Positions 31,553 through 33,857 of a stretch of 64,000 nt of DNA are shown here, piece by piece. Position 1 is the first letter of the stretch. Every line of letters begins with the position of its first letter. The position numbers and the translations under genes were made by a program. This DNA is from a bacterium (lineage in GTDB: Bacteria > Zhuqueibacterota > Zhuqueibacteria > Oceanimicrobiales > Oceanimicrobiaceae): assembly GCA_046757025.1 (NCBI GenBank), contig JBHHXN010000005.1, positions 25,989 to 89,988 of the forward strand, read 5' to 3'. The notes below the pieces were generated by a model. That model saw nothing but the letters and a program-made list of their open reading frames with translations. It had not been told where the DNA came from and made no database searches.

Positions 31553-31625
31553 ATCGCATAGAATTAATTTCAATAAAACCTCATTAGCTTTTATTTATTA
31601 AACAGATAGCATAATTGGTTAAAAG

Positions 31626-31641
31626 TGGTACAAGCTTTGCT
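31626..31641 (+). promoter_or_regulatory. sigma-54 (-24/-12) promoter
   Basis: TGGTACAAGCTTTGCT, exact GG-N10-GC spacing. Confidence 0.7.
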
Positions 31642-31710
31642 TTGAAGCTCCACGGAGAAATCATAATGATCTTCATTGAAAAATCACCAAGACTCATGAG
31701 GGCTGAAATC

Positions 31711-32676
31711 ATGAAAACACGGATGCTTGCTTGCCTGATTTTAGGCGTAGTTATGGTTTCGCCGCTATTTAGCAGCGAAACGGCTGTCATCATCAAAGTG
31801 ACGGGTTTGTATGGAATCATCAACAAAGGTACCAACCAGGGACTGCAAGAAGGCCAAGTATTTTATGTCAAAAGAGCAGTGTCTTCGCAATGGCAGGATG
31901 TGGCTAAAGTGAAAGTGATTCGAACCACCGCCAACCGAGCCGCTGTGGAACAAATCACCCATTCCAGAAAATTTGTCATTCAGAAAGGGGACAAGTTGTT
32001 TGCCAACAAGGAGGTTGTTTTCACGCCGCCGGTTGTGCCGAAGAAAGCGGCGGCGCCACCGACGCCGGTGGTAAACAAGCGGCTAGGAAAAAGGCCTGCA
32101 GTCGAACCCATTACCGAACCAGTTAATAAACAGAATGATGTGTCCCTTCCGGAGCCGGCTTATACTTATCAACGCAAAAGCTATCTACGGGAACCGTGGG
32201 TGAGTCTCAATCTGGGTTCCATTTTTCCGAGTGGTGAATTAGGGAATGCCATTTCACCCAGCATAAAATTTGGCGCCAGCTACATGGTGTCTACCGGCAA
32301 CAACTTAAATCTGGGAATTGAAATCAATCGAACTTTTTTTAGCGGTAGCGAATTAGGTAACAGTAATTTGACCGGCAGCAGCATCGAGTCGTCCTCGATA
32401 TTGGAAGCCATCGTGGTGTTTCAAAAATACTTTGGAAATCACTTTTTTATCGAAACCGGCGGCGGCATTTACCGACCCAAAATCAAAACCATTTCGGTGG
32501 ATAAGATCGAATCTAGTTTTTCATCTTCCAATTTTGGCTTGTTTGGCGGAACCGGATTTTTTATCCCCACCAGTAAATATGCCGGATTTACTTTGAAAGG
32601 CAGAATGCACAACTACTTTGATGAAACCACCAAGCAGTATTTCGGTTTGAGTGGCGGTTTTCGTTTTAAAATGTAA
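31711..32676 (+). CDS. Exported protein: FlgT-C-like beta domain, Pro-rich linker, C-terminal outer-membrane beta-barrel
   Basis: Signal peptide; INKG..QGL..G..F.V...VA.VKV...IQKGD; PPVVPKKAAAPPTP linker; amphipathic strands ending GGFRFKM. Confidence 0.6.
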   Translation: MKTRMLACLILGVVMVSPLFSSETAVIIKVTGLYGIINKGTNQGLQEGQVFYVKRAVSSQWQDVAKVKVIRTTANRAAVEQITHSRKFVIQKGDKLFANKEVVFTPPVVPKKAAAPPTPVVNKRLGKRPAVEPITEPVNKQNDVSLPEPAYTYQRKSYLREPWVSLNLGSIFPSGELGNAISPSIKFGASYMVSTGNNLNLGIEINRTFFSGSELGNSNLTGSSIESSSILEAIVVFQKYFGNHFFIETGGGIYRPKIKTISVDKIESSFSSSNFGLFGGTGFFIPTSKYAGFTLKGRMHNYFDETTKQYFGLSGGFRFKM

Positions 32677-32944: not shown

Positions 32945-32961
32945 TTTTTGATTAAAAAAGG

Positions 32962-33143
32962 TAACTATTCTGCCGGGGTTGTCATTCTCAGCGCAAATTT
33001 CGGGTTCTTTGCTCATCTCCACGGATACGGATGTGCGAAGAATCTCTTAGCCGGTTCGCAGGATGCTTCGCGCAGATACTTCCGCTGTGATGCTGCACAT
33101 TTGTGAGTTTGCGCTCAGCATGACGGTTTAGGCTGAACAGTTA
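32962..33143. mobile_element. MITE-like element with TAACTATTC(T/A)GCC ends and internal REP doublet
   Basis: 11/13 terminal IR; inner IR GTCATTCTCAGCGCAAA (32981-32997) / TTTGCGCTCAGCATGAC (33108-33124). Confidence 0.65.
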
Positions 33144-33152
33144 TTAAAAAAT

Positions 33153-33357
33153 TAACATTTCTCACTTCGTGACGTGATTCATAAACCAACTGTTAATTAA
33201 GAGGTTACTGATTGTTCTACTTTCACCCTGAGCGGAGTCGAAGGGTGACTAGTTCTGGATGTAATTCATGCTTCGACTCCGCTCAGCATGAAGTGAACCT
33301 GTCGTATCTAATTATTTAATATGAACATAGTTTCATAACTTAAAGTGAGAAATGTTA
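33153..33357. mobile_element. MITE-like element with perfect 15-bp ends TAACATTTCTCACTT and internal REP doublet
   Basis: 15/15 terminal IR; inner inverted pair TCACCCTGAGCGGAGTCGAAG (33223) / CTTCGACTCCGCTCAGCATGA (33271). Confidence 0.75.
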
Positions 33358-33378
33358 GTAAAAAAGTTTAAATTATTT

Positions 33379-33817
33379 GTAACGATTCAGTTGTTAGCTA
33401 TCATTCCTGCGAATGCAGGAATCTCCTCCGACATCCATTGAAACAAGTTCAGCGTACAAGTCTTGCCATTCTGGATACATTTCTCGAGGGTCATTTATTC
33501 ATGATTTTTTCCCGAGTTGTCATGGCAGTACTATCGGATGTTTGTTGAAACCACACCAGCTTGTGGCAATGGTGGTTTTTATTAAATCCCTGGCTCAATC
33601 CCTTTTTGTGTTCATCTACACGTTAAAAAAGGTTGTTCGTAACCTGATGTCAAGTGCGTTGTTATGTTTGTTTGACAATATGTACAATTATTAGTTTTCC
33701 ATAATTCTTATACCTGAATTTGTTTCACTTGATTGAACCAGAAAGAATTCTTTTCTGACTTTTGTCCATTGAATCGGGAGACTCCTGCATTCGCAGGAGT
33801 GACACCTGAGTAGCTCC
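33379..33817. mobile_element. Composite element: GTAAC.ATTCAG-type ends, inverted REP pair, GIY-YIG remnant
   Basis: REPs TATCATTCCTGCGAATGCAGGAATCT (33399-33424) and AGACTCCTGCATTCGCAGGAGTGACA (33779-33804), 23/26 inverted match; degenerate outer ends. Confidence 0.7.
33445..33702 (-). pseudogene. Decayed GIY-YIG nuclease gene
   Basis: Manual translation across 2 frameshifts and 4 stops: MEN**LYILSNKHNNALDI / VTNNLF*RVDEHKKGLSQGFNKNHHCHKLVWFQ...REKIMNK* / MYPEWQDLYAEL, matching the small GIY-YIG family pattern YVYIL.N...LYIGVT..L.RRV.EHK...GFT.KY...KLV.....REK..K.W...NP.W.DL. Confidence 0.85.
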
Positions 33818-33857
33818 ATTTATTTTAATAAAGTTAAAAAAAACCTGTAATTTTCAC

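Follow-up and report, generated by a model that had tools for sequence, protein, structure and literature searches.

Ssn proteins are single-domain GIY-YIG nucleases whose genes have GTCA-headed hairpins at both sides (Chenal et al. 2025, PMC11893778). They cleave these hairpins as single-stranded DNA a few bases upstream, and the cut made by SsnA lies just outside the hairpin heads (PMC11893778). An analogy of the hairpin–ssn–hairpin unit with RAYTs and insertion sequences has been proposed as a hypothesis by the same authors, in whose main text the terms 'MITE', 'target site' and 'pseudogene' are absent; the SRM pattern that they published finds both flanks in just 42% of homologues (PMC11893778). 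For CGTC-tagged repeats a search of the literature's other side found no dedicated transposase, and a broad spectrum of transposases has been suggested as their movers (Di Nocera et al. 2013, PMC3733652). Non-autonomous elements with IS ends have been defined as MITEs and as mobile insertion cassettes, MICs (PMC3129680, PMC3281130), and IS66 elements that carry passenger genes are on record (PMC12888890). Within the ISBst12 group of IS66, ISDge4 has been observed transposing; it makes an 8-bp duplication and has nearly the same ends as the locus described here (PMC12898284).

This locus lies in a window of 64,000 nucleotides, by which we mean the whole stretch of DNA that was analysed, and it is located upstream of nuoA (PF00507), in a gap that is AT-rich. 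The element spans 33379-33817 (439 bp), its only content is a nuclease relic, and no transposase is found inside. Judged from its sequence and from that of its copies, it is most probably a dead Ssn-type cassette enclosed in IS66 (ISBst12-group) ends, likely inserted in trans by an IS66 DDE transposase and not by the nuclease.

Table 1. Features of the cassette and of the two elements beside it, in window positions.
Feature	Position	Strand	Basis or remark
Gene-less MITE, same IS66-type ends, different hairpin pair	32961..33144	.	Duplication 7/8; 8/8 with the next element removed
Gene-less MITE, 16-bp ends YTAACATTTCTCACTT, third hairpin pair	33152..33358	.	7-bp duplication
Left copy of 8-bp target-site duplication (AATTATTT)	33371..33378	+	7/8 identical to 33818-33825
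Outer terminal inverted repeat, IS66/ISBst12 type	33379..33390	+	11/12 to GTAACTATTCAG; motif also ends intact transposase elements
SRM/NTS-like hairpin downstream of gene	33399..33425	+	Head outward, decayed: TATCA instead of TGTCA
9-bp direct repeat	33434..33442, 33765..33773	+	Internal, chance product of point changes
ssn-type GIY-YIG pseudogene	33439..33702	-	Sister-copy and profile matches, alignment to sister copies
SRM/NTS-like hairpin upstream of gene	33778..33804	-	TGTCA head, outward-facing
Outer terminal inverted repeat, decayed	33806..33817	-	9/12; sister copies 11-12/12 at the same place
Right copy of 8-bp target-site duplication (ATTTATTT)	33818..33825	+	7/8 identical to 33371-33378

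The gene is a fossil of ~95 codons between two outward-facing GTCA-type hairpins, and what is left of it on the minus strand consists of three pieces spread over two frames. Its GIY-YIG reading starts at 33702, changes frame near codon 20, where 1 bp has been deleted, is in frame again past a 23-bp deletion and ends at 33439; the gene's own stop codon is gone, and there are four internal stops (codons 4 and 5, plus 33625-33623 and 33493-33491). The original prediction of a decayed GIY-YIG gene between inverted hairpins is borne out by a sister copy (E=1.3e-15), by a profile built from 26 intact relatives (E=1.4e-16, plus two more pieces in the second frame) and by the hairpin arms themselves (33396-33426 and 33777-33807), which are 87% complementary. 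Over the family profile of Ssn relatives the fossil aligns as three pieces. The Pfam model PF01541 misses the window copy and matches 11 other places instead, and no Pfam match was obtained for its longest stop-free piece; a PDB search for a solved Ssn structure returned none, only a weak match to UvrC. The sister copy encodes a protein of 95 aa with PF01541 alone (E=2.3e-13), which places it among the single-domain proteins of <150 aa that define Ssn. The likeness to Ssn (cd10448; SsnA of Neisseria meningitidis, PMC11893778) covers the single GIY-YIG domain of ~95 aa and, in the relatives, the Tyr/Tyr/Glu residues, 11 and 47 residues apart as in Y6/Y17/E64. Among the intact relatives the catalytic Tyr pair is present in all 26 and the Glu in 25, with the Tyr6/Tyr17/Glu64 spacing kept. 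The fossil retains the first catalytic Tyr and the Glu; the position of the second Tyr reads Asp, as expected for a pseudogene. Relative to the majority of the sister copies, 6 of its 31 changes are synonymous, where a fraction of 0.216 is expected, and its decay is neutral. In contrast to Ssn, the window gene is dead; it works like, and very probably is, an ssn relic.

GTCA-headed hairpins are present on both flanks of the window gene. Both fold with an 8-bp stem, and the 64-kb window contains two hairpin matches against none in 100 shuffles. Counted by eye, 22 of 28 positions equal the NTS consensus of Ssn; at the stem position for which the published SRM pattern needs C:G, the window hairpins have T:A (PMC11893778). 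Neither hairpin matches that degenerate pattern at 0 or 1 mismatch: by inspection the upstream one departs from it at 2 positions, which form one compensated pair of the stem, and the downstream one at that pair and in its decayed head. The repeats had been likened to GTAG-type REPs; with their TGTCA heads they are of the GTCA/CGTC type instead. Better served was the expectation that intact homologues would be flanked by such hairpins, which 25 of 28 intact ssn relatives have on both sides, one on one side and two on no side (within 350 nt of the gene, by our own loose rule and without a shuffle control). With the REPtrons formed by REPs and RAYTs the locus has in common the geometry of a gene between hairpins; it differs from them in that the gene is GIY-YIG, with no HUH (Y1) transposase between the repeats, and in that the TGTCA-headed hairpins have no GTAG tag at their foot. 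CGTC-tagged REPs (Di Nocera et al. 2013, PMC3733652) resemble it in their CGTC/GTCA-kind hairpins arranged in doublets.

The hairpins are not the ends of the element, which is bounded by the outer 12-bp repeats. In this respect the window unit departs from the published Ssn units, being boxed in IS66 ends and a target duplication, on which the main text of PMC11893778 is silent. The ends of the window copy show four mismatches in total and are fixed by alignment to sister copies: blastn with the cassette matches related sequence on 19 other contigs of the genome, and the aligned copies continue beyond the hairpins as far as the 12-bp inverted repeat. The 12-mer GTAACTATTCAG has 35 exact copies in the genome against 0.9 expected, and the flanks of elements with these ends show a sharp peak of identity at 8 bp. 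A duplication of 7-8/8 accompanies 15 of 26 paired elements in the genome (mean 0.72 and maximum 5 in 10,000 shuffles), these being the ones, of 39 paired elements listed, that have <=2 mismatches in all; the window copy is not among them. In the relative G007, 16 of 17 exact-ended pairs, picked by hand, match at 7-8/8, the shuffle mean being 0.9. Empty paralogous sites were found for 4 of the 40 elements tested, two of them ssn cassettes. One of these, C129, is inserted in another repeat that has 21 uninterrupted copies, 20 of them gap-free at the junction; for the other, C28b, all five spanning copies are gap-free, and in both cases the target is present once. No empty site for the window copy was seen among paralogues or among the joints listed for four runs of one study, possibly including the source sample. 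A 471-bp joint over the C129 copy, recovered in three of the four runs, was considered as a trace of an insertion-free strain and set aside, as a paralogous empty repeat on C8 explains it best. The 9-bp direct repeat said to bracket the gene is indeed present and is nevertheless no boundary, as it lies inside the element. It was also rejected as a target duplication, being internal and doubled only in the window copy among 11 aligned rows (two partial); one of the two copies falls on the gene's mutated stop codon.

The owner of the outer repeats can be named from relatives. In G013, a genome of the same family, a single-ORF transposase of 505 aa, IS66 by both NCBIfam and Pfam, lies between these ends. 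Each of the six transposase matches across the phylum shows such an end on one side or on both, four of them on both, and in related loci from many phyla both ends (<=2 mismatches) enclose intact transposases in 46 of 80 cases. Where these related loci have flanks, a perfect 8-bp duplication is seen in 22 of 42, of which a single genome contributes 14 and seven others 8. The near-identical 12-bp ends and the 8-bp duplication agree with the ISBst12 group as represented by ISDge4 of Deinococcus geothermalis (PMC12898284), and so do the elements of relatives in which these ends enclose an intact single-ORF transposase; the window element differs from the group in holding a nuclease cassette in place of a transposase. 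IS66-type repeats together with 8-bp duplications point to a DDE transposase as the mover, and not to the nuclease. A cognate IS66 transposase was not found in this assembly (374 contigs, 94.8% complete) by Pfam, tblastn or a 50-sequence profile, the nearest being a 30%-identical N-terminal transposase fragment, which lies where a contig stops and lacks the 12-bp repeats. The gene may have been lost after an old burst or may have collapsed in the assembly, and the same-family relative does carry such a transposase. The 12-mer appears in no searchable paper, and IS66 ends (<=2 mismatches) occur near none of the 28 intact ssn relatives.

The same ends box other small cargo in this genome (C51:10051-11747, C123:13539-14320 and C13:53531-54187), the first two with 7-8/8 duplications. 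By eye this cargo comprises GxxExxY-like relics and one relic that resembles a four-helix bundle and has heptamer repeats. Since the ends enclose other cargo, they are not a property of the nuclease. Two further IS66-ended elements, C111:10139-10323 and C28:26101-26785, lie inside hairpins of other doublets, too few to speak of a target preference. Like MITEs and MICs (PMC3129680, PMC3281130), the window element is non-autonomous, with IS ends, a passenger gene and, probably, trans-activation by a cognate transposase; unlike theirs, its passenger is a candidate selfish unit with recognition hairpins of its own. No ISBst12-derived MIC was found in the literature searched.

The junctions of end, hairpin and ssn are shared with G137 and G129, from two other families of the class, and with one metagenome contig; a scan of metagenomes gave two loci only. 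No intact cassette with both IS66 ends was seen whole: G129 has an open ssn frame and the right IS66 end, the metagenome locus L105 has the left IS66 end and an open 5' part, and both are cut by contig ends. Between the open-frame copy of G129 and the majority sequence of this genome's copies dN/dS is 0.10, so that ssn was likely functional while it was cargo. Within this genome an in-frame TAA is common to five of the seven aligned copies that cover the codon, and its carriers include C129 and C28b, both precisely inserted. In G137, at C15 (L169) and in 11 more fragments, the ssn cassette is split at one codon by another hairpin MITE, whose ends are its own and whose target is duplicated; the split form later multiplied. 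The shared TAA and the shared interruption in G137 fit a spread without a working gene in cis. Five sister copies that share the TAA (C129, C28a, C28b, C34 and C109) show 40 synonymous changes out of 114 against 0.216 under neutrality (p=7e-4), an unexplained excess that weakens a simple account in which the gene broke once and then spread. The copies form a star-like tree whose support is low, and deletion derivatives of the cassette occur elsewhere in the genome (C90 and C259). Just one ssn-type gene without interruption was found in the assembly, an open frame at C173:9618-9836 (L001); its hairpins are of another type, and no IS66 end was seen close to it.

A stretch of 860 bp upstream of nuoA contains three MITEs. 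The empty doublets near the cassette had been regarded as its derivatives, a view that does not hold: neither has blastn similarity to the cassette, one having only the IS66 ends in common with it and the other having unrelated ends and a 7-bp duplication. The latter sits in the right target duplication of the former, and its removal restores a perfect 8-bp duplication, from which the order of insertion can be read. The family with YTAACATTTCTCACTT ends, unrelated to IS66 ends, shows a perfect 7-bp duplication in 9 of 14 paired copies, counts 48 ends (<=1 mismatch) in this genome and is present in 19 of 167 genomes of the phylum; its parent transposase was not found in 30 loci. A young, near-identical MITE family of ~220 bp has ends starting with TACGG and a canonical NTS-like hairpin pair (C10:28167, C13, C19, C46, C65, C73, C86, C107, C124, C180, C243, C259 and C265). 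Its 9-bp duplications, read by eye, are perfect in 11 of 13, and one copy lies, by appearance, inside a coding region. The IS-like ends that enclose hairpin pairs in this genome are of three unrelated kinds or more. For the hairpin type of the window, 26 of 37 genome copies have an IS66 end just upstream. Such end–hairpin junctions occur in 20 of the 167 phylum genomes, in 8 families, against a total of 3 matches in the controls; among 50 other genomes that bear the transposase, 2 have them. Also in the window, the ORF 31615-32676 (353 aa) has no Pfam family and by eye looks like a secreted outer-membrane protein.

The part of the original prediction that concerned mechanism cast the GIY-YIG nuclease in the role of a RAYT, as a mobiliser that itself cut out and inserted the cassette and the nearby doublets. 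The geometry on which this was built stands, being conserved in the 25 of 28 relatives, and the analogy has been raised in print by Chenal et al., whose SsnA cleaves just outside the heads (PMC11893778); the genome also has the open-frame ssn at C173. What is poorly supported is the nuclease as mover, since the ends are of IS66 type. Boundaries and duplications fall at those ends and not at the hairpins, precisely inserted copies have a premature stop, and the intact C173 gene is flanked by hairpins of a different type. Around intact ssn units in relatives, 21 paired loci of the 27 examined, C129 aside, no convincing outer repeat or duplication was apparent, and no strand-transfer activity of SsnA is reported in the main text of PMC11893778. 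This reading is accordingly very improbable and, for this locus, largely refuted; the nuclease is likely a passenger rather than the mover of the repeats. Poorer still is the idea that the outer repeats arose by chance or belong to the host, their likeness to IS66 ends being incidental. They are only 12 bp long, and one window end matches at just 9/12, yet the 40-fold excess in the genome, the pairing, the 8-bp duplications and the empty sites speak against it, as does the fact that intact transposase elements end in the same repeats; we regard it as scarcely tenable for this copy and as already refuted for the family of elements.

A more serious competitor assigns the nuclease a share in building the cassette: cuts by Ssn beside the heads would drop hairpin units into tiny MITEs made of IS ends, which DDE transposases then spread. 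It differs from the explanation that we prefer solely in letting the nuclease contribute actively to cassette formation. IS66 ends abut GTCA heads in a fixed orientation, through many different short spacers, in the 20 of 167 genomes; G007 has 110 such junctions against 138 exact ends, and minimal elements of 54-61 bp exist. Against this, the spacers from end to head range from ~1 to 14 nt and do not keep to the 3 nt of the published cut, other cargo has the same ends, and capture by transposase-driven gap repair gives the same picture without Ssn. We hold a role of the nuclease in cassette formation to be rather unlikely.

The preferred reading, a dead Ssn-type cassette moved by an IS66 transposase, can be put as a sequence of steps. 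The intact ancestor would have bound its own hairpins as single-stranded DNA and, going by the literature, cut ~3 nt upstream of the GTCA head. The enclosure of the hairpin–ssn–hairpin unit by IS66 ends would date from an ancestor that these copies have in common with those of two further families in the class, and purifying selection probably acted on ssn along the path from that ancestor. Copying by the transposase would then have brought the cassette to about ten sites, in part when the gene was already broken, and the window copy, the most diverged, would have decayed neutrally since.

The component parts of the locus are all known, and the locus itself is a dead relic. For the spread of CGTC/SRM repeats, the boundaries, duplications and empty sites described here name an ISBst12-group transposase as a mover; in the open literature searched, no paper on Ssn/SRM units inside IS ends was found. 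As far as sequence evidence goes, the nesting in IS ends supports the suggestion of Di Nocera et al. (PMC3733652), and it carries the caution that hairpins should not be taken for the ends of an element. Tentatively, and with more doubt than confidence, the observations can be extended to CGTC/SRM hairpins of the dRS3/NTS kind at large, which may multiply mainly as hitch-hikers, fused repeatedly to unrelated IS ends, at times with a working ssn and possibly via Ssn's own cut beside the head, and spread by DDE transposases. Such hitch-hiking, if true, would explain why CGTC/SRM repeats have never yielded a dedicated transposase.
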